A stretch of DNA of 64,000 bases from contig CAJFJM010000001.1 in assembly GCA_904384245.1 (NCBI GenBank), positions 21,252-85,251 of the forward strand, in the 5' to 3' direction. Of this stretch, positions 7,650 through 64,000 are shown one piece after another. The notes under the pieces are model-generated. The model searched no databases and was not told where the DNA came from. It saw only the letters and a program-made list of their open reading frames with translations. Each line of letters opens with the position of its first letter. Position 1 is the first letter of the stretch. A program made the translations under genes and the position numbers. The stretch comes from an uncultured Clostridia bacterium (GTDB lineage: Bacteria; Bacillota; Clostridia; TANB77; CAG-508).

Positions 7650-8534
7650 GTGAATATTGTATTATTGTTGATTTTTATATTAGTTCTTATTTGTGTAATA
7701 CTCGTGGTTAAATTATATCTAATAAAGCACTCAATTAAAGAAATAAAAAATGGTTTTACAGATGTTTTAGAATCAGATACAAATAATATAATAACAATAT
7801 CTTCATCAGATAAAGATATAAAAGCTTTAACTATAAATTTAAATAATAATCTTATAGAATTAAGAAATCAAAAATTGAAATATGAAAATGGTAATCAAGA
7901 ACTAAAAAAAATAATAACAAATATTTCACATGATTTAAGAACTCCATTAACAGCTATTAACGGATATATAGATTTATTAAAAGAGGAAGACATATCTAAA
8001 ACTCAAGAAAAATATTTAAAAATAGTACAAAGAAAATCAAATGAATTAAAAGAACTAACAGAGCAACTATTTGAATTTTCAAAAACAATGGATGTTGATA
8101 TAAATATAAAAAAAGAGAATTGTTGTATAAATGAAATTTTTGAAGAAACATTGATAAGTTATTATAATATTTTTAAAGAAAAAAATATAATTCCTACAGT
8201 TTTAATTTGTAATGAAAAAATATATAAAGCAATAAATAAAAATTCACTAATTAGAATATTTGAAAATATTTTATCAAATGTATTAAAATATAGTAGTGGA
8301 GACTTCAAAGTAGAGCTTAAAAATAATGGAGAGATAATATTTTCAAATAAAGCAACTTCATTAGATGCAACAACAGTACAAAAAATATTTGATAGATATT
8401 TTACAGTAGAAAATGCTAAAAAATCTACGGGATTGGGATTAGCTATTGTAAAACAATTAGTAGAATTGAATAGTGGGAGTATAGAGGCTAATTTTATTAA
8501 AGATATGTTGACTATAAAAATTAAATTTAATTAA
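7650..8534 (+). CDS. sensor histidine kinase (single N-terminal TM, HisKA + HATPase_c)
   Basis: H-box [16 protein letters not shown]-box [15 protein letters not shown] start 5 nt after GGAGG. Confidence 0.85.
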
Positions 8535-8656
8535 AAAATAGAGGAGTAATCCTTTATTTTTTTGTTCTTAATTCTTATTTATTATTGATAATTACTGGAA
8601 AACTTTCAATAAGTATGATAAAATCTAAATGTATTTTAGAAATAAAGGAGAAAAGT

Positions 8657-9259
8657 ATGTTAAAAAATAAATTAGAAATAGATAATCCAATAGAACTTGC
8701 AAAAGAAGAAGAAAGAATAACAAAATTAAAAGCATTAGAATTATTTGAAACAGGAAAATTAAATTTATTTGAAGTAGGAACATTTAATGGATTAGCACAA
8801 ATTCATAGATATCTATTTGAAGAAATATATGATTTTGCAGGGAAAATTAGAACAGAAAATATTTCAAAAGGTAATTTTAGATTTGCATCAGTTATGTATT
8901 TAGAAGAAGCATTAGAGAAAATAGACAAAATGCCTCAATCTAATTTTGATGAAATAATAGAAAAATATGTAGAAATGAATATTGCACATCCATTTAGAGA
9001 AGAAAATGGAAGAAGTACAAGAATATGGTTAGATATGATTTTAAAAAAAGAAATTAATAGAGTAGTAGATTGGAGTAAAGTAAGCAAAGAGGATTATTTA
9101 CTTGCAATGGAAAGAAGTCCAATAAAAAATACAGAAATAAAAATTTTGTTAAAAGAAGCATTAACAGATAAAATAAATGATAGAGAAGTTTATGTGAAAG
9201 GTATAGATGCAAGTTATAATTATGAAGGATATAATGTATATAAAATAGAAAACTTATAA
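8657..9259 (+). CDS. Fic/DOC family protein with non-canonical Fic motif
   Basis: Motif [12 protein letters not shown] fits HxFx(D/E)GNGRxxR except for E in place of the first G; AGGAG RBS before ATG 8657. Confidence 0.65.
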
Positions 9260-9306
9260 TATTTAGATATACAAACTCAAGAAATTCGGAAATGGAGGAA
9301 TAACAA

Positions 9307-12045
9307 TTGGATAAATTAGTATTAGTTGATGGGAATAGTATAGCAAATCGTGCATTTTATGGAATTATGGGAAGCAAAATGTTAACAACAAAAGATGGAA
9401 AATACACAAATGCAGTATATGGATTTTTAGCAATATTATTTAAAATATTAGAAGATGTAAAACCACAATATATAGCTGTAGCATTTGATTTAAAAGCACC
9501 AACAGCAAGACATAAAATGTATGAAGGATATAAAGCAAACAGAAAAGGCATGCCAGAAGAACTTGCAGAGCAAATGCCAATAATTAAACAAATATTAAAA
9601 GCAATGAATATAGATATAATAGAAAAAGAAGGATATGAGGCAGATGATGTTTTAGGAACTTTATCTAGATTCGGAGAAAAGCAAGGTTTAGAAGTGCATA
9701 TACTTTCAGGAGATAGAGATACTTTTCAACTAGCAACAGATAATGTAAAAATTCATATACCAAGAACAAAACAAGGAAAAACAGAAACAGAAATATATGA
9801 CAGAAACAAAGTAAAAGAAGTATATGGAATAGAGCCAAAACAGTTAATAGAAGTAAAAGGTCTTCAAGGAGATACATCAGACAATATACCAGGGGTACCA
9901 GGAATAGGAGAAAAAACAGCACTTTCTTTAATTCAAAAATATGGAACAATAGAAAATTTATATAATTTATTAGAAAAAAATGAAACAGATTTAAAAGGAA
10001 AACAAAAAGAAAAAATAGAACAAAACAAAGACTTAGCAGAACTTTCACATTTTCTAGGAACAATAAATCTAGAAGTACCAATAGAAGACACTTTAGAAGA
10101 TTTAAAATTAGAAGAATGGAATAAAGATGAAGTTTTAAAAATATTTAAAGAATTAAATTTTAAAAGATATATAGAAAGATTTAATTTAGAAAATCAGTCA
10201 AAAGAACAATTACAAAATGGAGAAATATCAGAAAACGAAGATAATAAATTACAAAATTTATTTAATATTGTGGATATTTCAATAGAAAATATTTTAGAGA
10301 TAATAAAAAATCAAAAACAAATGATATTTTATATACAAACAGCAGAGGATAATATAGAAGAAAAAATAATAAAGAAAAAAATTACATCAATGGCTATATA
10401 TAATAAGGAAAAAAACGAAGTATATAATATTTTTTTCAAGGAAGAAAAAGATGCAAAAATACTAAAAGAAGTTTTAGAAGATGAAAATATAAAAAAGAAA
10501 AGTCATCATTTAAGTGAGACATATATTTTATTAAAACAAATAGATATAGAAATAAGAGGAATAGAATATGATGCAAAAATTGCAGGATATATTTTAAATC
10601 CAACAGATAATAAATTAAAATTAGATGATTTAATAGAACAATATTTAGGTTTAAATATTCAAGACTATACAGGAAAAGAGCAACAAGAACAAATAACACT
10701 ATTTGAAGAAAATAATAAAGACGAAAATAAAGAAAATGATATAAAGAAAAAACAAATTTCATTTTATGCATATGCAATTTCAAAATTAGAAGAAATGATG
10801 ATAGAAAAACTAAAAGAAATAAACGCATTAGATTTATTTTATAATATAGATATACCAACAATAACAGTTTTATCTGATATGCAATGGAATGGAATGTATG
10901 CAAATATTGACGAATTAAATAAATTTGGAGAAGAATTAAAATTAAAAATAGATGAAAAAATGAAAAATATTCACAAATTAGCAGGAGAAGAGTTTAATGT
11001 TAATTCTACAAAACAACTAGGAGAAATACTTTTTGAAAAGATGAAATTACCAGTTATAAAAAAGACAAAAAGTGGATATTCAACAGATGTAGATGTATTA
11101 GAAAAATTAAGAGGAGAAGACCCAATAATAGAAGAAATTTTAGACTATAGACAACTTGCAAAATTAAATTCAACATATATAGAAGGATTAAGACCATATA
11201 TAAATCCAAAAACACACAGAATACACTCATTTTTCCACCAAACAATCACAGCAACAGGAAGAATAAGTTCAACAGAACCAAATTTACAAAACATACCAAC
11301 AAGATTTGAATTAGGAAAAAGAATAAGAAAAATATTTGAACCAGAAAAAGGAAATGTATATATAGATGCAGATTATTCACAAATAGAACTAAGAGTGCTT
11401 GCACATATATCAGGAGACAAACATATGATACAAGCATTTGAGAACAATGAAGATATTCATAAACAAGCAGCATCAAAAGTATTTAAAACACCAATAGACC
11501 AAGTAACAAAAGAGCAAAGAAGTGATGCAAAAGCAGTAAACTTTGGAATAGTATATGGAATAAGTGATTTTGGTTTAGGAGAACAATTAGGAATATCAAG
11601 AAAAATAGCTAAAAAATATATAGATGAATATTTAACAGAATATTCAGGAATAAAAGAATTTATGGAAAACATAACAGAAGAAGCAAAAGAAAAAGGATAT
11701 GTAGAAACATTATTCCACAGAAGAAGATATATTCCAGAACTAAAATCAAAAAATTATATGGTAAGGCAATTTGGAAGCAGAGCAGCAATGAACACACCAA
11801 TTCAAGGAACAGCAGCAGACATTATGAAAATAGCAATGATAAATGTATATAATGAATTAAAGAAAAGAAATTTAAAATCAAAAATTGTATTACAAGTACA
11901 TGATGAAATGATGATAGAAGTACCAGAAAATGAAATAGAAGAAGTTAAAAATATTCTTCAAGAATGTATGCAAAATGCAGTAAAACTAAAAGTACCACTA
12001 ATAGCAGAAGTATCAATAGCTAATAACTGGTATGATTGTAAATAA
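9307..12045 (+). CDS. polA: DNA polymerase I
   Basis: 912 aa; 5'-3' exonuclease N-terminus (LVLVDGNSIANRAFYG), polymerase motifs A (DYSQIELR), B (RSDAKAVNFGIVYG) and C (QVHDE); TTG start after GGAGG. Confidence 0.95.
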   Translation: MDKLVLVDGNSIANRAFYGIMGSKMLTTKDGKYTNAVYGFLAILFKILEDVKPQYIAVAFDLKAPTARHKMYEGYKANRKGMPEELAEQMPIIKQILKAMNIDIIEKEGYEADDVLGTLSRFGEKQGLEVHILSGDRDTFQLATDNVKIHIPRTKQGKTETEIYDRNKVKEVYGIEPKQLIEVKGLQGDTSDNIPGVPGIGEKTALSLIQKYGTIENLYNLLEKNETDLKGKQKEKIEQNKDLAELSHFLGTINLEVPIEDTLEDLKLEEWNKDEVLKIFKELNFKRYIERFNLENQSKEQLQNGEISENEDNKLQNLFNIVDISIENILEIIKNQKQMIFYIQTAEDNIEEKIIKKKITSMAIYNKEKNEVYNIFFKEEKDAKILKEVLEDENIKKKSHHLSETYILLKQIDIEIRGIEYDAKIAGYILNPTDNKLKLDDLIEQYLGLNIQDYTGKEQQEQITLFEENNKDENKENDIKKKQISFYAYAISKLEEMMIEKLKEINALDLFYNIDIPTITVLSDMQWNGMYANIDELNKFGEELKLKIDEKMKNIHKLAGEEFNVNSTKQLGEILFEKMKLPVIKKTKSGYSTDVDVLEKLRGEDPIIEEILDYRQLAKLNSTYIEGLRPYINPKTHRIHSFFHQTITATGRISSTEPNLQNIPTRFELGKRIRKIFEPEKGNVYIDADYSQIELRVLAHISGDKHMIQAFENNEDIHKQAASKVFKTPIDQVTKEQRSDAKAVNFGIVYGISDFGLGEQLGISRKIAKKYIDEYLTEYSGIKEFMENITEEAKEKGYVETLFHRRRYIPELKSKNYMVRQFGSRAAMNTPIQGTAADIMKIAMINVYNELKKRNLKSKIVLQVHDEMMIEVPENEIEEVKNILQECMQNAVKLKVPLIAEVSIANNWYDCK

Positions 12046-16617: not shown

Positions 16618-17666
16618 ATGGAAAATGAAATAGATATAAGTAAATATAAACAAATTTTTGAGAATATAAAACAAGAGGTACTAAAATCACAATATAAAGC
16701 AATGCAAGCAGTAAATACAGAAATGATATATATGTATTGGAATATTGGAAAAATCATATCAGAAAACATTGAATGGGGAAATAAATTCGTTGATAATCTT
16801 TCTATTGATTTGAAAAATGAATTTCCAAATATTCAAGGTTTTTCAGTTAGAAATTTAAGAAATATGAGAAAGTTTTATGAAGAATATCCTAGTATTGAAA
16901 TTTTGCAGACATTGTCTGCAAAATTGACTTGGTCGCATAATATTTTGCTAATAAATAAAATTAAGGATATGGAAATTAGAAAATGGTATATGAAAGAAAC
17001 AATCAAAAATGGTTGGTCACATGATGTTTTAGCAGACCAAATAAAATATAAATTATATGAAAGACAAGCTATAGCAGAGAAAGTAACAAATTTTGAAAAT
17101 ACATTGCCAGATGCTCAAAGTGATTTAGCTATGCAAACAATGAAAGATCCATATATATTTGATTTTATTGTTTTAAAAGGACAAGTGAAAGAAAAACAAA
17201 TAGAAGATGCTATGATTGAAAAAATAAAAAATGTGCTTATTGAGTTAGGAAATGGATTTGCATTTGTAGGAAATCAGTATAAGATAACAGTAAGTGATAC
17301 AGATTATTTTATAGATTATTCTATCATTTAGAATTAAGATGTTATGTTGTAGTGGAATTAAAAGCGAGAAAATTTAAACCTACTGATGCAGGACAATTGA
17401 ATTTCTATTTATCAGCGATAGATGATATGTTAAGAAAAGATGGAGATAATCCAACAATTGGGATATTACTATGTAAAGAAAAAGACAAACTAACAGCAGA
17501 ATATGCTTTAAAAGATATAAATAAACCTGTTGGCGTAAGCGAATATAAACTTTTACAAGATATACCAGAATATTTGCAATCACAATTACCAAAAGCAGAA
17601 GAAATTGAATTGCATATTAAAGATATTGAAGAAATAGAAAAACAGCAAGATAATGAAGAAGAATAA
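16618..17666 (+). pseudogene. DUF1016/YhcG-family PDDEXK nuclease gene disrupted by a frameshift near 17316
   Basis: ORF 16618..17331 carries the family N-terminal region (…LSAKLTWSHNILLI…); ORF 17352..17666 in another frame carries the C-terminal VELKARKFKPTDAGQLNFYLSAIDD motif; the alternative frame reads …LFYHLELRCYVVVELK… across the gap. Confidence 0.65.
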
Positions 17667-22026: not shown

Positions 22027-22566
22027 ATGGAAAAATTGATATTAAAAGCAAAAAAAGGAGATAAAGCAGCTTTTACAGAATTGTTTGTTAAAATTGAAAA
22101 TGATTTATATAAATTAGCAAAAGTAAAAATAAAAAGTGAAGAAGATGTAGAAGACGTAGTCCAAGAAACTATGATAAAAGCTTTTATATCAATTCGTAAA
22201 TTAAAGTCTAATAAAGCTTTAAAAAAATGGATTGTGCAAATATTATTTAACAATTGTAAAAGATATTTTAAAAAGAAGGAGAGGAGGGAATGTAGTTATG
22301 AAATAGAAATTATTAAATTGGACAAGGCCGACCAAAAAGATTTTTTTGAAAGTACAGAAAATGATGTTGATTTTAAATTGTTACTTCATTCTTTAAGTGA
22401 AGAAGAAAAAATAATTATTTTACTTTTTTACAATGAAAGATATACCACAAAGGAAATAGGAAGTTTGCTAGGAATTAATGAAAATACTGTAAAATCTAAA
22501 TTAGCAAGAGCCAAAAAGAAAATAAAAATCCTAAAGGAAAGTGAGGAAGAAATATGGATGAAATAG
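22027..22566 (+). CDS. ECF-type RNA polymerase sigma-70 family factor
   Basis: 179 aa; region 2 (…DVVQETMIKAF…) and region 4 HTH (…YTTKEIGSLLGINENTVKSKLARAKKKI…). Confidence 0.8.
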   Translation: MEKLILKAKKGDKAAFTELFVKIENDLYKLAKVKIKSEEDVEDVVQETMIKAFISIRKLKSNKALKKWIVQILFNNCKRYFKKKERRECSYEIEIIKLDKADQKDFFESTENDVDFKLLLHSLSEEEKIIILLFYNERYTTKEIGSLLGINENTVKSKLARAKKKIKILKESEEEIWMK

Positions 22567-23702
22567 ACAGATATCTTGAAAAAAAGTTTAAAGAAGAAGT
22601 AGAAGTGCCAGAAAGTTTTGAAAAAGCTATAAGACAAGCTTTATATTCAGAAAGATTTGAAAAAGTATGTAGAAAAAGAAAACTTATAAAAAATATATCA
22701 ATTTTTTGTTTATTACTTATTTGTACTTCTGGATGTGCAATTGGTGGATATATAGCATATGAAAATGTATGGAAGGAGCCGAAGCAGTATACGTATGCAG
22801 AATTAAAAAATACGATTGAACAATCAAATGTAATGGAAGAAGAAAAAGCAAATTTAATTTCAGAGGAAGAGGCAAAAGAAAAAACATTGGAAATTGTGAA
22901 TAATTTAGGATATAAGAATCAGGAAATAACTAAGATTGAGTTGAATCAGAATAAAGAAGAGGGATATGAAGAAGTATATTATTCAATAGAGAGTAAAAAT
23001 AATTATAATGAAAATTTAAAAATAAGTTTAGATGCTGTGACAGGAGAATTAAACTTTTTAGAAGATGAAAGAAATATGACTAATAGTAATAACAAAGTTT
23101 CAATTGAACAGGCAACTAATATATCAAATAAAATTTATAATGATGCAGGATTAACCCAAGAATATAAGATGAGTTCATGTCAAGAGGAAATAAGAGTATA
23201 TAAAGGTCAAGATATTGAGATGTGGGTGTCAAAATATAATAAAATATATGATAATTTAATAAATCCATATGAAGAAATAGAAATATTGTTTACAATACAT
23301 AATGATGAGACAAAGATAGCATCAATTATTAAATCTAAAAATGGGATGTATGAGGACAATGAAGAAGTTATAACAGAGAATGAAGCAATTGAAATCGCAA
23401 AAAATAAAGAAAAGGAGCTAACCGATAACGAGGTATCTAAGATTGATTCAACTATAGGAATAAGAAAATTTAATAAATATATATATGACTTAGAAAATAA
23501 TGTTGTTATTAATAATGAAAAGGTAGATAGCGATGATAAGATGATTGCTGAAACTGAGAATAGAGTTAGAAAAGTATGGATAATTAGTATATATCATGAA
23601 GAAATTGAAACAGATAGTATAGAGAATTATTTAAAATCAAAAGATAAATCTTATTATATTGATGTTACAACAGGAGAAATTGTAGGAGGGTCAAAAATTT
23701 AA
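22554..23702 (+). CDS. putative membrane-anchored anti-sigma factor with extracellular PepSY-like repeats
   Basis: Overlaps the sigma gene by 13 nt (translational coupling); single TM (ISIFCLLLICTSGCAIGGYIAY); repeated about 60-aa PepSY-like modules. Confidence 0.5.
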   Translation: MDEIDRYLEKKFKEEVEVPESFEKAIRQALYSERFEKVCRKRKLIKNISIFCLLLICTSGCAIGGYIAYENVWKEPKQYTYAELKNTIEQSNVMEEEKANLISEEEAKEKTLEIVNNLGYKNQEITKIELNQNKEEGYEEVYYSIESKNNYNENLKISLDAVTGELNFLEDERNMTNSNNKVSIEQATNISNKIYNDAGLTQEYKMSSCQEEIRVYKGQDIEMWVSKYNKIYDNLINPYEEIEILFTIHNDETKIASIIKSKNGMYEDNEEVITENEAIEIAKNKEKELTDNEVSKIDSTIGIRKFNKYIYDLENNVVINNEKVDSDDKMIAETENRVRKVWIISIYHEEIETDSIENYLKSKDKSYYIDVTTGEIVGGSKI

Positions 23703-27475: not shown

Positions 27476-27549
27476 TCGTTTTAAATATTGCATTTTGAGC
27501 ATTTTTTATGTATAATATGAAAAAAAGTCGAAGGGTGGAGAATTGTGTC

Positions 27550-29460
27550 ATGTATGAAAGGAGTGCAATAGTACTAGAGAGATATTTTAATTATTTATTT
27601 GGACTTCAAAAAGAAAAAAACTTAAGCACTAACTATCAAAATTATATTTCACTGGTAGACGAATTAGAAAAATACCAAAATATAATAGACGAAGAAGAAA
27701 AAGTTATCAAAAGTTTTGATGAAGTTGCAACTAAAATACAAGAGATACAAAAGAAACAAGAAAAATTAAGTAATATAAATATAAAACTGGAAGAAGAAAG
27801 AGGCAAATTATTTAATGCCCTTGATGAATCCCCTTCTTTAATAGAAAAAAAATTAGAAAAAATAGAGAGCACCATTGAAAATAATGCACAAGAATTACAA
27901 AATTTAAAAGAAGATTTTATAGATTCTTTAAAAAGCTTTTCAGATAGACAAGTAGAAAGAAATAAATGTTCAAGAACAAAAAGAGTTGTAGAAGCAAATC
28001 ATATATCTTTTATAAAACAAGTAACAGAAGAAATACAAGCAATAGATATATCAGATTTAAAAAAGGTCAAATTATTTTTGACAAATGAAGATACAAAAAT
28101 GCAAGATGAGCTTATAAAAATAATGATGGAAAATGGAAAAAATGAAAAAGTAAAGTTTAATAAAGAAGTCATTCAAAAAGCTGTTATTGCAAGAATAGGT
28201 ATAGCAAAAAAAGAAGCAGAAGGATATTTACTTTCTTATGATAAAATGAGAAGGCTTTTATCAGAAATAGATAATGATACTTTAAAACTTTCAAAATATC
28301 AAAAAGTTTTCAGAGATTTAAGTGTAAAATTTTCTTTTTTGGAAGCAGAAAAGAATTATATTTTTGGCTTTTTAGATAATGAAAGAATGACAGCAATAAA
28401 TGGAGAAAAAATTCATTCTGAAATGATGAAAGAAGCATGCCAAAATTTTGATGTAGATATGGCTCAAATAAAAAATCTATATGAACTAATTTTAAGAGAA
28501 GTAGCAGGGAAATCAACTAAAAAAGCATATAATGAATTATATAATAAAACATATTTAAAAGATATAGAAGATAAAGAAAAGAATTTTGAAGAAGAAGTAA
28601 CACATATGAAGATTCAAGGAACAGTAATAAATTCTAATTACTGGAGAATAGAAGGAATTAAAAATTTGTATGATGTATTCCAAAAAGAAGTAAGCGAAAA
28701 ATTCAATAAAGATTTATCAGAATATAAAATTGAAGAGGAAGAAGAACCCAATACAGATATTGATATTGATTTAGATATATTTGGAGATTCTGATTATGAA
28801 GAAGATTATACAAATGATGTAGATGATGAAGATTTAAAAAATACGAAAGATAAAGAAGATGAAGAAAACGAAAATTATATTGACGACGAAGAAGATGAAT
28901 ATGAATATGAGGAACAATATGATGAGGAAGAAAACGAAGATGATGAAGATTTAGAAGATGAATATAATTCAGAAGAGGATTTAGAAGATGACCTAGAAGA
29001 GGATGACGAAGAAGAATTCGAAGATGAAGAATATGAAGATGAAGAAGATTATGAAGAAGAATATCAAGAATCAGAATATGATGAAGAAGATGAGGATACT
29101 GAAGATGAAGATAATTATGAAGAAGATGAAGAAGATGATGATGAAGATTTAGAAGAAAGTTATGACGAAGAAGATGAAGAAGATTATGACAATAAATATG
29201 AAGAAGATGAAGGGAATGATAGCAGATTCAAAAAAATAACAAATAAAAATTATAAATCTCCAAAATACTATGAAGATGAAGACGAAGAAGACGAGGAAGA
29301 TGAAGATTACGAAGATGATGTAGACATTTATAGAAATAATAGAGTAAATAAAAGAAATAGAGGAAATATTGATGATAGACTAGCAAAATACAAAGAAAAA
29401 ATGAAAGGAGAAAAACAAGCAAAAGGACTTTTAGGATTTTTTAAAGATAGAAAAAGATAA
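27550..29460 (+). CDS. coiled-coil protein with about 250-aa poly-acidic (D/E/Y-rich) C-terminal tract and short basic tail
   Basis: Promoter TTGCAT-17-TATAAT (27488-27516) lies inside the ORF-track start; GGTGGAG RBS 9 nt before ATG 27550; residues about 400-600 are almost entirely D/E/Y. Confidence 0.6.
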   Translation: MYERSAIVLERYFNYLFGLQKEKNLSTNYQNYISLVDELEKYQNIIDEEEKVIKSFDEVATKIQEIQKKQEKLSNINIKLEEERGKLFNALDESPSLIEKKLEKIESTIENNAQELQNLKEDFIDSLKSFSDRQVERNKCSRTKRVVEANHISFIKQVTEEIQAIDISDLKKVKLFLTNEDTKMQDELIKIMMENGKNEKVKFNKEVIQKAVIARIGIAKKEAEGYLLSYDKMRRLLSEIDNDTLKLSKYQKVFRDLSVKFSFLEAEKNYIFGFLDNERMTAINGEKIHSEMMKEACQNFDVDMAQIKNLYELILREVAGKSTKKAYNELYNKTYLKDIEDKEKNFEEEVTHMKIQGTVINSNYWRIEGIKNLYDVFQKEVSEKFNKDLSEYKIEEEEEPNTDIDIDLDIFGDSDYEEDYTNDVDDEDLKNTKDKEDEENENYIDDEEDEYEYEEQYDEEENEDDEDLEDEYNSEEDLEDDLEEDDEEEFEDEEYEDEEDYEEEYQESEYDEEDEDTEDEDNYEEDEEDDDEDLEESYDEEDEEDYDNKYEEDEGNDSRFKKITNKNYKSPKYYEDEDEEDEEDEDYEDDVDIYRNNRVNKRNRGNIDDRLAKYKEKMKGEKQAKGLLGFFKDRKR

Positions 29461-58085: not shown

Positions 58086-58910
58086 ATGTATAAATTTGTC
58101 GCAATAGATTTAGACGGAACAATGCTAAATAGTTATGGTATTGTAACAGAAAATACAAAAGAAGTTATAAAAAAAGTGATAGAAAAAGGAATTGATGTTA
58201 TTATAGCATCTGGAAGACCGATAGATTCAATAAAAACAATTGCAAAAGAAATAGGTTCAAATAAATATTTTATAGCAGGAAATGGAGCATTAGTATATGA
58301 TATACAAAATGAAGAAATTATATACGAAAAATATATTTCAAAAGAAAAAGCATTAGAAATTATAAAAATATGTGAAGAAAATAGTATATCATATAATCTT
58401 TATACAGAAACAACAATTATAGCAAAAGCATTAAAATATAATGTGCTTTATTATCATAAAGAAAATTTAAAAAAAGAAGAAAACAAAAGAACAAAAATTA
58501 CCATTATAGATGATATATATAATTATGTAAAAAATTTGGAAGAACCAAGATTTTTGAAAATTACAATATGTGATAGCAATAAATTTGTATTTCAATCAAT
58601 AATAAAAAAACTAAGAAAAGTAAATAATATTGAAGTATTAGATGTATCACATATGTCAAGAAAAGTTATTAAACAGGGAACAGAAGATATACCGATAGAA
58701 TATTACTATACAGAAATTTCACAAAAAGATGTTGATAAATGGAATGCAATTACTTTTTTAGCACAAAAAATGAATGTAAAAGAAGAAGAAATTATGGCAA
58801 TTGGAGATAATATCAATGATAAAAATATGATAAAAAATGCAAAACTTGGAATAACAATGGAGGGAAGTTCACCAGATATAATTGAAATAGCAGATATTGT
58901 GACTCGGTAG
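58086..58910 (+). CDS. Cof-type HAD-IIB phosphatase
   Basis: MYKFVAIDLDGTMLNS DxD motif; …GDNINDKNMI…; AGGAG RBS before ATG 58086. Confidence 0.85.
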   Translation: MYKFVAIDLDGTMLNSYGIVTENTKEVIKKVIEKGIDVIIASGRPIDSIKTIAKEIGSNKYFIAGNGALVYDIQNEEIIYEKYISKEKALEIIKICEENSISYNLYTETTIIAKALKYNVLYYHKENLKKEENKRTKITIIDDIYNYVKNLEEPRFLKITICDSNKFVFQSIIKKLRKVNNIEVLDVSHMSRKVIKQGTEDIPIEYYYTEISQKDVDKWNAITFLAQKMNVKEEEIMAIGDNINDKNMIKNAKLGITMEGSSPDIIEIADIVTR

Positions 58911-59116
58911 TAATGATGAAGAAGGTGTTGCAAATGCACTAATAAATTATTGTTTAAAATAAATATTACAAAAGCATTACAAAAATATTACAATGATATT
59001 AACTTTTCATGACACCCATGTTTTTTATTGATTTTACACTAACTTTGGTTTAAAATAAAATAAAGGTTATTTTGCAGAAATTATGCGAATTTATAAAAAT
59101 AAAGGAGGAATTTGGC

Positions 59117-60235
59117 ATGGCTATAAATCCAATGCAAAGAAAAGCAAGAAATTCATTTTTATTAGGAATGTTGTTAATGTTAGTAATAGCAGGAGCTGTT
59201 GTTGCATTACTAGTATTACAACTAAAAAATTATAAGGACGAGGAATTAGCAGAACAAGCTGCTAGTGTTAATATTGCAGTATTAAATCAAGATGTTAAAT
59301 CTGGACAAATTATAACTTCAGATATGCTTACAACACAAACAGTTAATAGAAATTATATTCCATCAGATGCTATAGGAGATGCAGCTATTTTAGAAAATTA
59401 CAATTTACAAGATAAAGAAGGAAATATAGTAACAACTGTATATGATGAAGATGAGGATACTTCAAAATTATACATAAATATCGATGGAAGAGATCAAGAA
59501 TTATTACAAGAAGAGGAAACAGGAAATTATTATATTCAAACAAATAATGATGAAAAACAATATATAGAGTTAAATTCAGTTCCTGTTGTGGCAAAAGTTG
59601 ATATGACAAAAAATACAATTTTAACAAGAGAACTTGTATCAAGAGCTGATAATACATCATCTGACGATGTTAGACAACAAGAATATAATATGATTGTATT
59701 ACCAATGCAAATTGAAACTGGAGATTATATAGATATTCGTTTATCATTACCTTCAGGACAAGATTATATTGTAGTATCTAAAAAAGAAGTAACAGTACCA
59801 GAAATAGCAGGATTACCATCAGAAAATACTATTTGGGTTAATTTATCAGAAGCAGAAATTATTTTATTAAATAATGCAATAGTTGAAGCATATAAAATAC
59901 CAGGAAGCAAAATATATGCAAACCTTTATACAGAACCTGGAATGCAAACAGCAGCTATTATAACATATACACCAAGTAGAGAAGTTGCAAACTTAATTGA
60001 TGCAGATCCAAATATTGTAGATAGAGCTAAGAGTGAATTACAAAGTCGTTATAATGCAGATCAAAGAAATAATGTTATAAATCAAGCTCTTCAAAACAAT
60101 GCTGATGAAGCAGATGCAAATGTGGAAGCAGGAGTAGAAGAGGAAGTTACAACAACACAAGAAAATAGAAAAAATTATTTAGATGGATTAGCAGGAGCAT
60201 CAAATACAACAAGTACTACTACAACAGCACAATAA
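59117..60235 (+). CDS. CpaB/RcpC-like Flp-pilus assembly protein with Thr/Ser-rich C-terminal tail
   Basis: AGGAGG RBS before ATG 59117; N-terminal TM, SAF-like segment (VVAKVDMTKNTILTRELV), …GDYIDIRLSLPSG…. Confidence 0.5.
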   Translation: MAINPMQRKARNSFLLGMLLMLVIAGAVVALLVLQLKNYKDEELAEQAASVNIAVLNQDVKSGQIITSDMLTTQTVNRNYIPSDAIGDAAILENYNLQDKEGNIVTTVYDEDEDTSKLYINIDGRDQELLQEEETGNYYIQTNNDEKQYIELNSVPVVAKVDMTKNTILTRELVSRADNTSSDDVRQQEYNMIVLPMQIETGDYIDIRLSLPSGQDYIVVSKKEVTVPEIAGLPSENTIWVNLSEAEIILLNNAIVEAYKIPGSKIYANLYTEPGMQTAAIITYTPSREVANLIDADPNIVDRAKSELQSRYNADQRNNVINQALQNNADEADANVEAGVEEEVTTTQENRKNYLDGLAGASNTTSTTTTAQ

Positions 60236-60260
60236 TATTATTAGAAAGGGAGAAAAACAG

Positions 60261-60953
60261 ATGAAAAAAATAGGGTTTATTGGAGCATATGATAAAACTG
60301 ATATGATTTTAAATGTAGCTAAAATAATGACAACAATGGGGCATAAAGTATTGCTAATAGATTCAACTTTAGATCAAAAGGCAAAATATATCGTACCTGT
60401 AATAAACCCTACTACATCTTATGTTACAAATTTTGAAGATATAGATGTTGCGGTAGGATTCAATAATCCAGAACAAATAAAACAGTATTTGGGAGTTTCT
60501 GGAGAGGAAATGAACTATGATGTATGGTTGATTGATGTTGATTCGGCTGAAAGAATAGAAACATTTGATATTTTAAAAGCTGATAAAAATTTCTTTGTTA
60601 CAGCTTTTGATTTATACTCATTAAAAAAAGGATTAGAAATTTTAAGTGAGATAAAAGAACCAATTGCATTAACAAAAGTTTTATTTGCAAAAGAGGTATT
60701 AAAGGAAGATGATGATTATTTAAATTTCTTATCTTTAGGATATAAAGTTATTTGGGATGAAGAAAGAATATATTTTCCAATAGAAAATGGTGATTGGTCA
60801 GTTCTTATTGAAAATCAAAGAGTTTCAAAAATAAAATTTAAAAGATTAAGTGCACAATATAAAGATAGCTTGGCTTTTATAGTATTAGAAGCATTAAATA
60901 CAAGTGATTCTAATGTAAGAAAAGCAATGAAAATTATAGAAAGAGGAGTTTAA
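60261..60953 (+). CDS. degenerate ParA/MinD-fold protein (no intact Walker A), TadZ/CpaE-like accessory
   Basis: 230 aa; …KIGFIGAYDKTDMILNVAKIMTTMGHKVLLID… fold-like but lacks GxxGxGK(S/T). Confidence 0.35.
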   Translation: MKKIGFIGAYDKTDMILNVAKIMTTMGHKVLLIDSTLDQKAKYIVPVINPTTSYVTNFEDIDVAVGFNNPEQIKQYLGVSGEEMNYDVWLIDVDSAERIETFDILKADKNFFVTAFDLYSLKKGLEILSEIKEPIALTKVLFAKEVLKEDDDYLNFLSLGYKVIWDEERIYFPIENGDWSVLIENQRVSKIKFKRLSAQYKDSLAFIVLEALNTSDSNVRKAMKIIERGV

Positions 60954-60954
60954 T

Positions 60955-61794
60955 ATGGCAATTATTACTTTTTATAATGCTAATAGCGAAGAAACGGGAA
61001 AAACATCATCACTAATAGCAATTGCAACATATATGTCTATAGAGCACAATGTTAAAAATTTAATTGTTTCTACTACTAATAAAGAAGACAGGATTAGAAG
61101 AGCTTATTGGAAAGAAGAAAAAAAGCCTAAATTTAGTTTTGGTATTTTTGGTCCAAACAAAAATAATATTTTGGAACAAGAAGGTGGTATTTTAGGATTA
61201 GCTAAGATGGCAAAAAGTAATAAAGTAGCACCTGAAATTATTACAAACTATACAAAAGTAGTTTTTAAAGATAGATTAGAAATACTTATAGGACCAGAAA
61301 AACAAATAGATGATATATATGAAGTATATCCAGATATATTAACAGTTGCAAACCAATATTATGATAGAATTTTTGTGGATTTAGATGACAATGTGCCAAA
61401 AGATATTGCAGAAAAAATATTAAAAAAATCAGATATTATTGTTATTTGTACAAATCAAAGATTAAGTAGTATTGAACAGGTAAGACAAAGAAAAGCAGAA
61501 GATCCTTTATTTAAATCAAGTAAAACAGTATTATTGATAGGAAGATATGATAAATATTCAAAATATAATATAAAAAATATTACTAGATATTTAGGAGAAA
61601 AAAATCAAGTACTTACAATACCATATAATACTTTATATTTTGAAGCAACAGATGAAGCTGGTGTACCAGATTTATTTTTAAAGTTCAAAAAATTTTTAGA
61701 CCCAGAAGACAGAAATGCATCTTTTGTTGAAGAAGTAAAAAGAGCTTCTGAAGGGATTATATATAGAATGCAATCAATTCAGGCAGGGTTATAG
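60955..61794 (+). CDS. degenerate ParA/MinD-like protein, TadZ/CpaE-like
   Basis: 279 aa; deviant P-loop region …NSEETGKTSSLIAIATYM…; 1-nt gap from the upstream gene. Confidence 0.4.
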   Translation: MAIITFYNANSEETGKTSSLIAIATYMSIEHNVKNLIVSTTNKEDRIRRAYWKEEKKPKFSFGIFGPNKNNILEQEGGILGLAKMAKSNKVAPEIITNYTKVVFKDRLEILIGPEKQIDDIYEVYPDILTVANQYYDRIFVDLDDNVPKDIAEKILKKSDIIVICTNQRLSSIEQVRQRKAEDPLFKSSKTVLLIGRYDKYSKYNIKNITRYLGEKNQVLTIPYNTLYFEATDEAGVPDLFLKFKKFLDPEDRNASFVEEVKRASEGIIYRMQSIQAGL

Positions 61795-61808
61795 AAAGGA
61801 GAATATCA

Positions 61809-63779
61809 ATGACTATAACTAATATTTTATTAACAATAGTTGTGTTAGTAGTAGCAATAGCAGCAATATACTATTATTTAAAAAAGAAAAAAAATCAAGA
61901 AGTAGAAACAACTATTAATGTAGATGACAAAACATATACATTAGATGTAATGAAAGAATTTGTTAAAAAAAGATTAGATGAAATAACAAAAGTAAACTTA
62001 TATGATATTGGTTTATCAGAAGAAGAGTTAAAAAGAAGAAAAAATAAGAAATATGAATTGAAAAAAGCTTTAAAAGGTTGTACATATGGAGATGTAAATG
62101 ATAAAAAATATGTACAAGAACTAATATTTGATTTACTTTCTAGTGAATATGGTGTAGATGAAACTAATATATCTAAAGCAATTCCATTTGATATTCCTTC
62201 TTTATTAACTGCACAAGATAAATTCGATATTTTAATTTATGCCTATAAAAAAGATTTTGGCTATGAAGCTCTAACAGAACTAATAAAGAAATATAATTTA
62301 GCAGAATTAAAATATGTAGAAGGAGAATCAAAACCTTCATATGTTATAACTGCAAAAGAAATAGAAGATATATATGAAAAAGAAAATATAGAATTAAGTT
62401 TTTCAGATAAATTATCTATTGTAGTTCAAAGAATATATCAACATTATAAAGGATATAGCACAATAGATGAAATAAGAGATATGAACATAGATGGTGTATC
62501 TGGTGGTGTATCTGGACTTCCAGAAAGTTTCTTAAGCCAAGTTGCACAAACTGCATCAGGAGATTATCTAAATCAAGTTGCAGAACATAAAGTACCAAGA
62601 GCATGTGATAGTATTTGGATATTTTTCCAAGGTAAATCTATACGTTTAGCGTTCTTATCATTTGGAACAGAAGCAGAACTAAAAAGGGTTTGTCAAAATA
62701 TATATAAATACAATAACCCAGGACAATTATCAGATACAAATGGTTATAAAATAAATGAAATGAAAGATGGTTCACGTGTCGTTGTTGTTAGACCAAGTTT
62801 CTCAGAAACATGGGCATTCTTTGTAAGAAAATTTGACGTAAAACGTGCAACACTAGAACAATTAGTAACTTTACCAGGAAAAGAAGATGCAATAGAATTA
62901 TTAAAATTCTTAGTAAAAGGAGCAAGAATCACAGCAATTACTGGTGAGCAAGGTTCTGGTAAAACAACATTACTTATGGGTATGATAGAAAATATTTATG
63001 AAACAATGAACATAAGGGTTCAAGAAACTGCATTCGAGCTTCACTTAAGAAAAATTTATCCTACAAGAAACATACTTACATTCCGTGAAACAGATACAAT
63101 TTCTGGACAAGAAGGTTTGGACGTTCAAAAGAAAACTGATGGTTCTGTTAACATCATAGGTGAGGTTGCAACAGACCCCGTAGCATCTTGGATGATACAA
63201 GCAGCCCAAGTTGCATCTAAATTTACATTATTCACACACCATGCTAAAACATTTCCAAACTTAGTTACAGCACTTCGTAACTCAATGTTAAGAACAGGAG
63301 TGTTCACAGATGAAAAAACAGCAGAGGAACAAGTTGTACAAGTACTAAACTTTGATATACACCAAGTAAAAGACTTTAGAGGACAAAGATATATAGAAAG
63401 AATTACAGAATGTATCCCAGTAGAAAGTAAAAATGAATATACATATGATCATAGAAATGAAAAGACATTAGAAGGAAAATTTGATAAATTCTTTGATAAT
63501 GCAACACATTATTTCACAAAATCAACAGATAGGCAATTATATACATATCGAAACATTATGGAATATATTGATGGAGAATATGTAATAACAAACCCAATTT
63601 CTGCACAAAACATCAAAGAAATGAGAAATAATATGGACGCAGCAGATGTAGAAGAATTTGATAAATTTGTTCAAAAACACTGGGGAAATCAATTAGAATC
63701 AGTATTAGTTTCAGCAGATCCTGATGAAACAGAAACAAAAAAAGTATCAAGAAGAGGTAGAAAACCAAAAGAAATATAG
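61809..63779 (+). CDS. CpaF/TadA-family secretion ATPase with about 200-aa N-terminal extension containing a TM helix
   Basis: Walker A GEQGSGKTT, …DGSRVVVVRP…RKF, …IIGEVATDP…, His-box FTHHAKT; N-terminal ILLTIVVLVVAIAAIYYYL TM. Confidence 0.7.
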   Translation: MTITNILLTIVVLVVAIAAIYYYLKKKKNQEVETTINVDDKTYTLDVMKEFVKKRLDEITKVNLYDIGLSEEELKRRKNKKYELKKALKGCTYGDVNDKKYVQELIFDLLSSEYGVDETNISKAIPFDIPSLLTAQDKFDILIYAYKKDFGYEALTELIKKYNLAELKYVEGESKPSYVITAKEIEDIYEKENIELSFSDKLSIVVQRIYQHYKGYSTIDEIRDMNIDGVSGGVSGLPESFLSQVAQTASGDYLNQVAEHKVPRACDSIWIFFQGKSIRLAFLSFGTEAELKRVCQNIYKYNNPGQLSDTNGYKINEMKDGSRVVVVRPSFSETWAFFVRKFDVKRATLEQLVTLPGKEDAIELLKFLVKGARITAITGEQGSGKTTLLMGMIENIYETMNIRVQETAFELHLRKIYPTRNILTFRETDTISGQEGLDVQKKTDGSVNIIGEVATDPVASWMIQAAQVASKFTLFTHHAKTFPNLVTALRNSMLRTGVFTDEKTAEEQVVQVLNFDIHQVKDFRGQRYIERITECIPVESKNEYTYDHRNEKTLEGKFDKFFDNATHYFTKSTDRQLYTYRNIMEYIDGEYVITNPISAQNIKEMRNNMDAADVEEFDKFVQKHWGNQLESVLVSADPDETETKKVSRRGRKPKEI

Positions 63780-63798
63780 GCATAGGAGGTGAAAGCAG

Positions 63799-64000
63799 GT
63801 GTCAAATCAAACCATATATATAATTATGGGGCTTGCAGCAGGATTATTTGTACTAATTATATTAGCATATTACATAATATCTAAAAAAATGCAAAAATCC
63901 GAATATAAAGCTATACAAAAATTGCAACAAGGTACAAAGCAAAAGAAATTTTCATTAGAAATCTTATATCAAAAATTATATATTACATATGTAAAAATAC
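63799..64000 (+). CDS. TadB/TadC-like membrane protein (5' part; runs off the window)
   Basis: AGGAGGTG RBS before GTG 63799; N-terminal TM IYIIMGLAAGLFVLIILAYYI. Confidence 0.35.
   Translation, partial: MSNQTIYIIMGLAAGLFVLIILAYYIISKKMQKSEYKAIQKLQQGTKQKKFSLEILYQKLYITYVKI

Follow-up and report, generated by a model that had tools for sequence, protein, structure and literature searches.

Which machine is encoded by the run of five genes that closes a 64-kb stretch of DNA from an uncultured Clostridia bacterium? The stretch analysed here (contig CAJFJM010000001.1; 64,000 nucleotides, hereafter the window) ends in five open reading frames (ORFs) between positions 59117 and 64000, which the initial annotation had listed as a CpaB-like protein, two ParA/MinD-fold proteins, a CpaF/TadA-family ATPase and a TadB-like membrane protein and had read as a divergent Tad (type IVc) pilus or secretion apparatus. 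All five ORFs are present at these coordinates on the plus strand, separated by intergenic gaps of 25, 1, 14 and 19 nt, and they form the 5' third of a chromosomal operon of approximately 14 kb. We regard this operon as a pilus cluster of the uncultured gut order TANB77, by which a Tad-related type IV filament is probably assembled on a Gram-positive cell envelope. Beyond what has been published on this cluster, we found that the whole module is not exclusive to TANB77, that an N-terminal transmembrane (TM) anchor is the norm in the family of its ATPase, and that its pilin-like subunits are predicted to be leaderless, a property on which the published account does not remark.

The five genes open the published pilus cluster of TANB77

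Kim et al. (Nat Commun 2024;15:10726; PMC11680825) reported that 122 of the 129 species in the uncultured order TANB77 carry a pilus cluster of 10-14 genes. The cluster encodes proteins of 358 amino acids (aa; CpaB), 231 aa (TadZ), 280 aa (CpaE) and 640 aa (TadA/CpaF, with one TM helix), then a protein of 693 aa with 8 TM helices, whose first half was found to be TadC-like and whose second half TadB-like by Foldseek, and finally six proteins that resemble pilins and, at the end, a large protein whose N-terminus is TadE/PilV-like (PMC11680825). Genes 927-938 of HRGM_Genome_2725 in that study are the same locus as ours, with first proteins of 358/231/280/640/693 aa there versus 372/230/279/656/692 aa here; they come from another species or strain, and the last protein has 621 aa there and 876 aa here. 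The order and the sizes of the twelve genes match Table 1 of PMC11680825. The Tad-like locus is therefore already known, our annotation repeats a published in silico one, and the Tad-like interpretation is supported but not new. In PMC11680825 the pilus assignment was computational (AlphaFold and Foldseek), and the experiments concerned immune stimulation by the recombinant last protein; the product of the last gene was reported to activate dendritic cells through TLR4, and TANB77 abundance was reported to predict the response to checkpoint immunotherapy. The same paper calls the cluster exclusive to TANB77, contains no occurrence of the word 'prepilin' and does not mention leader peptides. 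Because the cluster is a signature trait of TANB77, the true nature of the machine matters for the work on immunotherapy response and TLR4 (PMC11680825).

The exact ATPase protein is present on several metagenome contigs. Related loci from metagenome contigs and plasmids are cited here by labels that begin with L. One of them, L002, is 100% identical to window positions 57756-64000 (6,245 nt) and is thus a valid continuation of the window, in which the window coordinate equals the L002 coordinate plus 57755. Downstream of the gene for the 692-aa protein, L002 encodes proteins of 226, 147, 143, 122, 129, 135, 214 and 177 aa and then one of 876 aa, after which follow a strong terminator (16-bp stem) and spoIVB. 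Of these genes, 5-8 count as pilin-like. Extending the sequence past position 64000, as the initial annotation had proposed, brought to light the polytopic membrane protein and pilin-like genes that it expected, but no Flp, tadV or prepilin peptidase gene in the cluster.

The same five-gene order was found in more than 80 related genomes and also in relatives whose ATPase is only 33-39% identical, which shows that the arrangement is not due to chance. In many species the module, with ATPases that are 79-95% identical, is found at one and the same place in the chromosome, flanked by hpf-SASP-Cof and spoIVB. The genome matches belong to gut Clostridia that are uncultured, among them CAG:575, CAG:389 and Candidatus Merdicola, which we take to belong to the GTDB order TANB77. 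Metagenome loci with only 34-39% ATPase identity keep the order of a SAF protein, a protein of approximately 200-212 aa, one of approximately 261-277 aa, the ATPase and a membrane protein of approximately 674-727 aa, and many TM proteins with a short N-terminus follow.

The ATPase groups with CpaF

The ATPase encoded by the fourth gene matches Pfam T2SSE with 29.4 bits (cut-off 24.9) and TIGR03819 with 34 bits. Since both scores are low, the protein is, judged by its sequence, a distant branch of the CpaF/TadA family. When the single sequence was searched against the PDB sequences, CpaF was retrieved at E 8e-11 and all other proteins at 0.05 or worse. A family profile built from 42 diverse members gave CpaF at 1e-26, archaeal FlaI at 2e-13 and archaeal GspE at 1e-12, followed by PilT and VirB11 (both approximately 1e-9), GspE (1e-8) and PilB (1e-7). 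The ATPase thus groups with CpaF and does not fall outside the CpaF/VirB11 clade. In the alignment to Caulobacter CpaF the catalytic motifs are intact (GEQGSGKTT, ETAFEL, IIGEV and THHA for the Walker A, Asp box, Walker B and His box, respectively), and G384 and K385 are invariant in the family alignment. The canonical Rhizobium CpaF is only 28% identical to the protein, over residues 267-541.

The region that can be aligned to CpaF begins at residue 271, and about 215-265 residues precede the CpaF-like part. The initial annotation had pointed to a TM helix in this extension, and it is readable at the very N-terminus, followed by a run of lysines. An N-terminal hydrophobic segment is present in 99 of 120 full-length representatives of the family, indicating that both the extension and the anchor are typical of the family and do not stem from misannotation. 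The family is all the same a distinct one: among 1.84 billion representatives, searched exhaustively, only 1,343 proteins matched the ATPase at E<=1e-3, 380 of them at E<=1e-30, and of the best 150 listed most align along their entire length, with identities as low as 33%. One representative (P0121) was not placed on any contig.

The pilin-like subunits share an invariant N-terminus and are predicted to be leaderless

The pilin-like genes lie on L002 at positions 8149-11878, equivalent to window positions 65904-69633. In the 80 related loci, 197 distinct downstream proteins begin with M-E-N-A-x-x-A-L-x-x-A-G followed by approximately 16 hydrophobic residues (hereafter MENA proteins), and M1, E2, N3, A4, A7, A11 and G12 are invariant in all 197. 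In the search pattern, M1, E2 and G12 were fixed, and A7 and A11 were each restricted to two residue types; as position 3 could be any of six residue types and position 4 any of three, the invariance of N3 and A4 is an independent observation. In 189 of 201 MENA genes there is no in-frame upstream start, a stop codon being located 0-24 codons ahead of the gene, and the ATG follows a strong ribosome-binding site of the AGGAGG type.

The subunit class of approximately 130 aa is often tandemly duplicated. Among 75 sequences of this class, residues 1-57 are nearly invariant and the C-terminal residues (approximately 70) are variable. The model of the major subunit (predicted local distance difference test, pLDDT, 84.7) consists of an N-terminal helix of 34 residues (residues 2-35) and a small alpha/beta head. 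A long N-terminal helix, a small head, a conserved N-terminal half and a variable C-terminal half are the features of a type IV filament subunit fold. The 876-aa protein also has its own N-terminal hydrophobic helix. No protein downstream on L002 gave a significant Pfam match, including to Flp and TadE; for the 177-aa protein a faint DUF4320 match (E 0.071) was obtained, but five homologues did not show it and it was not used as evidence.

Contigs L001 and L002 share more than 99.7% identity with the window and carry different numbers of the major subunit gene (two versus three, the latter of 122, 129 and 135 aa) at window-equivalent positions of approximately 67700-69000, which suggests a recent tandem gain or loss.

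We also considered Gly12 as a hidden prepilin cleavage site. Plasmid orthologues of the MENA proteins (MSTNASKALYFGAS..., MESPVVKAIILAVT... and MDSPVVKKIFLALA...) are equally leaderless and do not conserve this glycine, so that cleavage at Gly12 is unlikely as a family rule.

The SAF protein, the MinD/ParA-like proteins and the putative platform

The first gene encodes a protein with a TM segment at its N-terminus, for which an alternative TTG start exists at position 59072. As to the CpaB label of the initial annotation, the Pfam SAF match is marginally above its cut-off (21.5 bits versus 21), whereas the TIGR03177 CpaB match is far below it (31.6 bits versus 71) and covers only the first 73 profile positions. 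Both the long acidic insertion and the Ser/Thr-rich tail that had been described can be read directly in the sequence, the insertion containing ...VYDEDEDTSKLYINIDGRDQELLQEEETGNYY... and the tail being ASNTTSTTTTAQ. Homologues in the distant loci L086 and L087 were found at E approximately 1e-20, and plasmid homologues carry the annotation 'SAF domain-containing protein'. The family profile had no match among the PDB sequences.

The products of the second and third genes (proteins 1 and 2; 230 and 279 aa, respectively) had been described as ParA/MinD-fold proteins that both lack a canonical Walker A, and their P-loops agree with this. The P-loop position of protein 1 reads GFIGAYDKTD, which differs from both GxxxxGK[ST] and the MinD/ParA signature KGGxxGK[ST]. 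In protein 2 (NANSEETGKTS) the GKT is retained, whereas the first Gly and the Lys of the MinD/ParA signature are absent; distant and plasmid orthologues no longer have the Walker Lys. The plasmid orthologue of protein 1 from Clostridium argentinense retains GADRTGKS, a canonical GxxxxGKS, which indicates that the TANB77 protein has a decayed P-loop. The only sequence signal of protein 1 is to CbiA (E=0.013), and its family profile found nothing meaningful among the PDB sequences. Its AlphaFold model (pLDDT 69, predicted template-modelling score 0.76) had MinD, NifH, BchL, ParF, FlhG and FleN as best Foldseek matches (E 5e-3 to 2e-2, template-modelling score up to 0.54), weakly suggesting a MinD/ParA-class fold. 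The family profile of protein 2 matches CooC, ParF, ParA, Get3 and Soj weakly (E 0.03-1.3), and alignment of the two family profiles with hhalign gave a weak match around the Walker-B strand (E 0.0026). As for a TadZ-specific signal, no TadZ receiver-like N-domain was seen in proteins 1 and 2 and no solved TadZ was among their matches.

The fifth ORF is complete on L002, where it encodes 692 aa with 8 hydrophobic segments. From the label 'TadB-like membrane protein' of the initial annotation, a polytopic protein of platform size remains, and its size and its 8 hydrophobic segments fit TadB plus TadC. TadB, TadC or T2SSF similarity was not found at the sequence level; the label cannot be shown by sequence and rests on the Foldseek result of PMC11680825.

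The module is also carried by Bacillota megaplasmids

By tblastn against plasmids, 32 plasmid records were found in which at least 80% of the ATPase is covered at 37-61% identity. The carriers are Thermobacillus composti pTHECO01 (L088), a Cohnella plasmid, ten Paenibacillus plasmids, plasmids of Alkalihalophilus pseudofirmus OF4, Sporosarcina and Cytobacillus, eight of Lysinibacillus including pBsph (L089), those of Clostridium argentinense, C. botulinum and C. beijerinckii, and those of Butyrivibrio proteoclasticus. Plasmid pRSJ17_1 was included as L090. The megaplasmid modules (pTHECO01, pBsph and pRSJ17_1, and those of Paenibacillus, Cohnella, Sporosarcina and Butyrivibrio) have the same order as the cluster of the window, namely a SAF protein, proteins of approximately 233 aa and 260-285 aa, the ATPase, a protein of approximately 670-690 aa, small leaderless subunits, and proteins of approximately 176-184 aa and 325-342 aa. 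The major subunit is homologous between TANB77 and pTHECO01 (E 2e-10), and so are the first approximately 415 residues of the 876-aa protein and a pTHECO01 protein (E 1e-16). The plasmid modules differ from the TANB77 cluster in being plasmid-borne and in carrying extra genes, which follow the module and encode SLH or cell-wall-binding proteins, a DUF5704 protein of approximately 1,000-1,200 aa and GGDEF and HD proteins; they sometimes have conjugation-type neighbours, and some of their ATPases lack the TM anchor. We found no paper on the plasmid-borne module family in the literature. A prophage origin was rejected, the phage collection containing no relative of the ATPase. Because the module is on plasmids of the easily grown Lysinibacillus sphaericus C3-41, Thermobacillus composti, Paenibacillus polymyxa and Alkalihalophilus pseudofirmus, the proposed pilus can be tested directly, without culturing TANB77.

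The existence of full-length ATPase relatives on 32 Bacillota plasmids raises the alternative that a Gram-positive system of the conjugation type has its surface structure or pilus in this module, which in TANB77 would serve for cell-cell contact or DNA exchange and not for adhesion to a host or a substrate. Such a mating apparatus would fit the setting of several relatives: in pTHECO01 a type IV coupling protein and a replication-relaxation protein are encoded upstream, a few kb from the module; in pRSJ17_1 the module is preceded by genes for an 870-aa ATP-binding protein, a JAB protein and a C40 cell-wall peptidase; and an NlpC/P60 gene lies upstream in the metagenome locus L086. The top NCBIfam match of the ATPase, 'TadA family conjugal transfer-associated ATPase', points in the same direction. 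However, the TANB77 cluster is chromosomal, at a conserved site, with no coupling protein, relaxase or VirB4 nearby; the SLH/cell-wall-binding, DUF5704, GGDEF and HD genes of the plasmids suggest regulated adhesion; and the adjacency on plasmids may be mere co-carriage. We consider a DNA-transfer apparatus unlikely.

Locus L091 of C. botulinum pCLJ (positions 163313-184515) encodes a shorter ATPase of 468 aa, with 25% identity over residues 112-546. The short ATPase occurs on C. botulinum and C. sporogenes plasmids of approximately 240-275 kb, which are conjugative neurotoxin plasmids, and is followed by genes for proteins of 298 and 359 aa and several tiny ORFs. The pCLJ-type locus is a second, more remote Tad-like plasmid module.

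A probable Tad-related filament whose subunits lack a recognisable leader

Altogether, the CpaF-like ATPase, the platform-sized protein, the pilin-like genes and the annotation in PMC11680825 bear out the core of the initial annotation, and we are rather confident that the locus encodes a filament or secretion machine related to Tad. We also lean towards the view that the MENA proteins form an external pilus. In such a pilus, a hexameric CpaF/TadA-type ATPase, tethered by its own N-terminal helix, would dock on the 692-aa platform; the two catalytically degenerate MinD/ParA-like proteins would act as TadZ/CpaE-type organisers or localisers, and the bitopic SAF protein would form an extracytoplasmic collar. 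ATP hydrolysis would then drive the platform to lift small bitopic subunits from the membrane and to stack them via their N-terminal helices. The subunits would be the downstream MENA proteins of 120-270 aa, with the tandem paralogues of approximately 130 aa as the major subunit, the 226-, 147-, 214- and 177-aa proteins as minor subunits, and the 876-aa protein as a tip or adhesin subunit. The production of a filament, the roles of the individual proteins and the independence from a prepilin peptidase are what we infer from these data.

The comparison with Tad/Flp (type IVc) systems such as Caulobacter Cpa and Aggregatibacter Tad shows both likeness and difference. The cluster shares with them the CpaF-near ATPase, a putative SAF/CpaB-type protein, putative MinD/ParA-type TadZ/CpaE-like proteins, a putative platform of about the size of TadB plus TadC, and small subunits followed by larger TadE/G-like proteins. 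Unlike them, it has no Flp pilin (G/XXXXEY), no TadV/CpaA in the cluster or in the 64-kb window and, as expected for a monoderm, no secretin; its putative platform is one fused protein without a T2SSF sequence signal, it has two TadZ-like genes, and its ATPase is TM-anchored with a family-specific N-terminal region.

Several results weigh against a Tad-related filament. The filament has never been observed and TANB77 organisms are uncultured. Every match except that of the ATPase is far below the curated family cut-offs, and the CpaB and TadZ assignments are weak. For the 692-aa protein family, Pfam T2SSF had no match in four diverse members, the family profile had no match in the PDB, alignment with hhalign gave no similarity to Rhizobium TadB and TadC, and no internal repeat or duplication was detected. 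The major subunit matched no pilin by sequence or by Foldseek (the best PDB folds were NTF2-like designs, E 0.37), and the profile of the pilin-like family found nothing meaningful among the PDB sequences. The subunits of the cluster have neither a class III signal peptide nor any other leader. A six-frame regular-expression scan of the window and the 16-kb L002 extension for G-xxxx-E-[YFW] followed by a hydrophobic run was empty, in line with the earlier statement that no Flp-type pilin is visible upstream. Finally, Peptidase_A24 had no match in the cluster proteins and in approximately 60 other window ORFs of at least 90 aa, including the adjacent genes, in a scan limited to the window and the cluster; for the SASP, hpf and Cof genes precomputed Pfam labels were used.

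To our knowledge, a Flp/class III leader and a prepilin peptidase are defining parts of every type IV filament. The TANB77 cluster could nevertheless use type IV-like subunits without leader or prepilin peptidase, in which (f)Met-Glu-Asn-Ala would be the mature end and Glu2 would take the role of the classical Glu5. It would then be the chromosomally fixed member of an unrecognised, mostly megaplasmid-borne Bacillota branch of the type IV filament superfamily that has lost the class III signal-peptide step and that, on plasmids, might serve for mating or adhesion as a pilus of Gram-positive cells. We put this forward tentatively, as a scenario that we find somewhat less probable than its negation. 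If a filament is made, this would mean that the type IV superfamily can do without a prepilin peptidase, with subunits that lack the leader and cleavage site of all known type IV filaments.

The only classical class III signal in the window is that of an orphan 288-aa protein (positions 54489-55355; KNERG|ITLMALV..., with Ala instead of Glu at +5), near which no PilB, PilC or PilD gene is located. This protein implies that a prepilin peptidase may be encoded elsewhere in the genome.

The subunit set itself brings up a second alternative, a pseudopilus-type secretion machine in which a wall-internal piston would export cargo, for instance the 876-aa protein, in the manner of type II secretion. 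The subunits do look like a set of pseudopilins, as they fall into several classes that have a highly conserved N-terminal helix in common, a large extracytoplasmic protein is encoded at the end of the operon, and a 'secretion apparatus' was also left open by the initial annotation. Nevertheless, the hypervariable C-terminal half and the tandem copies of the approximately 130-aa subunit fit a surface-exposed major pilin under diversifying pressure, and the 876-aa protein, with its own N-terminal helix and its homology to a 342-aa protein of the plasmid cluster, looks like a subunit and not like cargo. We judge a piston of this kind to be improbable.

If the leaderless proteins were simply type II signal-anchor proteins, the ATPase and the platform could form a non-filament membrane complex in envelope remodelling or in a process linked to sporulation. 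This explanation would account for the lack of a leader, a Flp/class III motif, a peptidase and detectable pilin homology, and the surroundings are rich in sporulation genes (SASP, spoIVB, spoIVA and dpaA). It does not fit equally well that the extreme N-terminus is invariant across paralogue classes, a degree of conservation that one expects of a packing interface but not of a simple anchor, that a CpaF-type ATPase, a SAF protein and TadZ-like proteins are generally known to co-occur in Tad systems (see also PMC11680825), or that the plasmid copies are found in varied hosts, apart from sporulation loci. A complex of this type appears to be slightly less probable still. A SpoIIIA-like sporulation channel, which we considered for the spoIVB neighbourhood, was set aside on the gene sizes and gene order of that channel and on the CpaF-type ATPase, SAF and ParA-like partners.

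Archaeal type IV filaments (the archaellum with FlaI/FlaJ and Epd-type pili) are like the cluster in that their ATPases, FlaI and archaeal GspE, are its next-best ATPase relatives, and in having a single long platform protein and multiple tandem subunit genes. The subunits of the archaeal filaments have class III signal peptides that are cut by FlaK, PibD or EppA. A rotary archaellum-like motility filament, of which these second-best solved ATPase relatives and the resemblance of the long fused platform to FlaJ and of the tandem major-subunit genes to multiple archaellins are reminiscent, is nonetheless very improbable, as CpaF matches 13 orders of magnitude better than FlaI, no FlaH, FlaF, FlaG, FlaX or chemotaxis-family matches, nor any of other archaellum accessory families, were obtained in the Pfam scans of the cluster and the scanned window proteins, and the SAF/CpaB and MinD/ParA-type partners are Tad features.

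Features and neighbourhood of the cluster in the window

The coordinates of the features of the Tad-related cluster are collected in Table 1. The candidate promoter listed there has a weak basis: 51 promoter-like matches were found in the AT-rich region versus 47 expected in shuffles, and promoter scans are uninformative here because at 25% G+C such matches are about as common in shuffled sequence.

Table 1. Features of the pilus cluster within the window (positions in nt; position 1 is the first nucleotide of the window)
Feature	Position	Strand	Remarks
Candidate sigma-70-like promoter	59033..59061	+	TTTACA-17-TAAAAT; in the 206-nt gap before the first gene; weak basis
CpaB/RcpC-like bitopic protein, 372 aa	59117..60235	+	TM helix, SAF domain, acidic insertion, S/T-rich tail
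Putative MinD/ParA-fold protein 1, degenerate, 230 aa	60261..60953	+	P-loop reduced to GAYDKTD; Walker-B-like strand YDVWLIDVD kept
Putative MinD/ParA-fold protein 2, degenerate, 279 aa, TadZ/CpaE-like	60955..61794	+	EETGKTS and YDRIFVDLD
Predicted CpaF/TadA-family secretion ATPase, 656 aa	61809..63779	+	N-terminal TM anchor and family-specific N-terminal domain
Predicted TM anchor of the ATPase	61821..61877	+	Residues ~5-23, then KKKK; read from sequence
Walker A of the ATPase, residues 379-387	62943..62969	+	GEQGSGKTT, aligned to GGTGSGKTT of CpaF
Putative platform protein, 692 aa, 8 TM, start	63799..64000	+	GTG start; ORF cut by the window end, reaches window-equivalent 65877

The window has approximately 25% G+C, and nearly all of its genes are on the plus strand. 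Pfam scans identify it as an ordinary part of the chromosome of a spore-forming member of the Clostridia, with ruvB, queH, polA, dpaA, uppP, dxs, whiA, spoIVA, a lonC-like gene, hpf and SASP. Of the related loci, 55 extend for 7 kb or more upstream of the CpaB-like gene; as its usual neighbours, SASP was present in 47 of them, the Cof hydrolase in 45 and hpf in 39. The initial annotation had also suggested that the cluster is functionally linked to a nearby SipW island and an atypical pilin-like gene. SipW-island proteins were found in only 2 of the 55 loci, which come from the species of the window itself, and the gene for the 288-aa protein in 3; the proximity is thus species-specific and lends no support to a functional link, so that this suggestion was dropped.

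The island itself (positions 50357-54129) contains a SipW-type signal peptidase of 122 aa with Peptidase_S24/S26 matches, flanked by secreted or anchored proteins of 201, 205, 206 and 448 aa that have no Pfam match, and may be a TasA-like fibre island. Between hpf and SASP (positions 56015-57487), the window encodes a polytopic GtrII-type glucosyltransferase of 490 aa (Pfam E 7.5e-17), which is found in this place in only 2 of the 55 related loci and may be an accessory gene for surface glycosylation.

Elsewhere in the window, a gene for a YhcG/DUF1016 PD-(D/E)XK nuclease appears to be split over two adjacent ORFs (16618-17331 and 17352-17666) and the profile continues across both, so that it is probably a frameshifted pseudogene or the result of a sequencing error. 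Three large ORFs have no Pfam match (at E<=1e-3 or 1e-4), at positions 1064-2638 (524 aa), 22554-23702 (382 aa) and 27508-29460 (650 aa). The 382-aa ORF overlaps the end of an ECF sigma-factor gene and may encode the anti-sigma partner of this factor.

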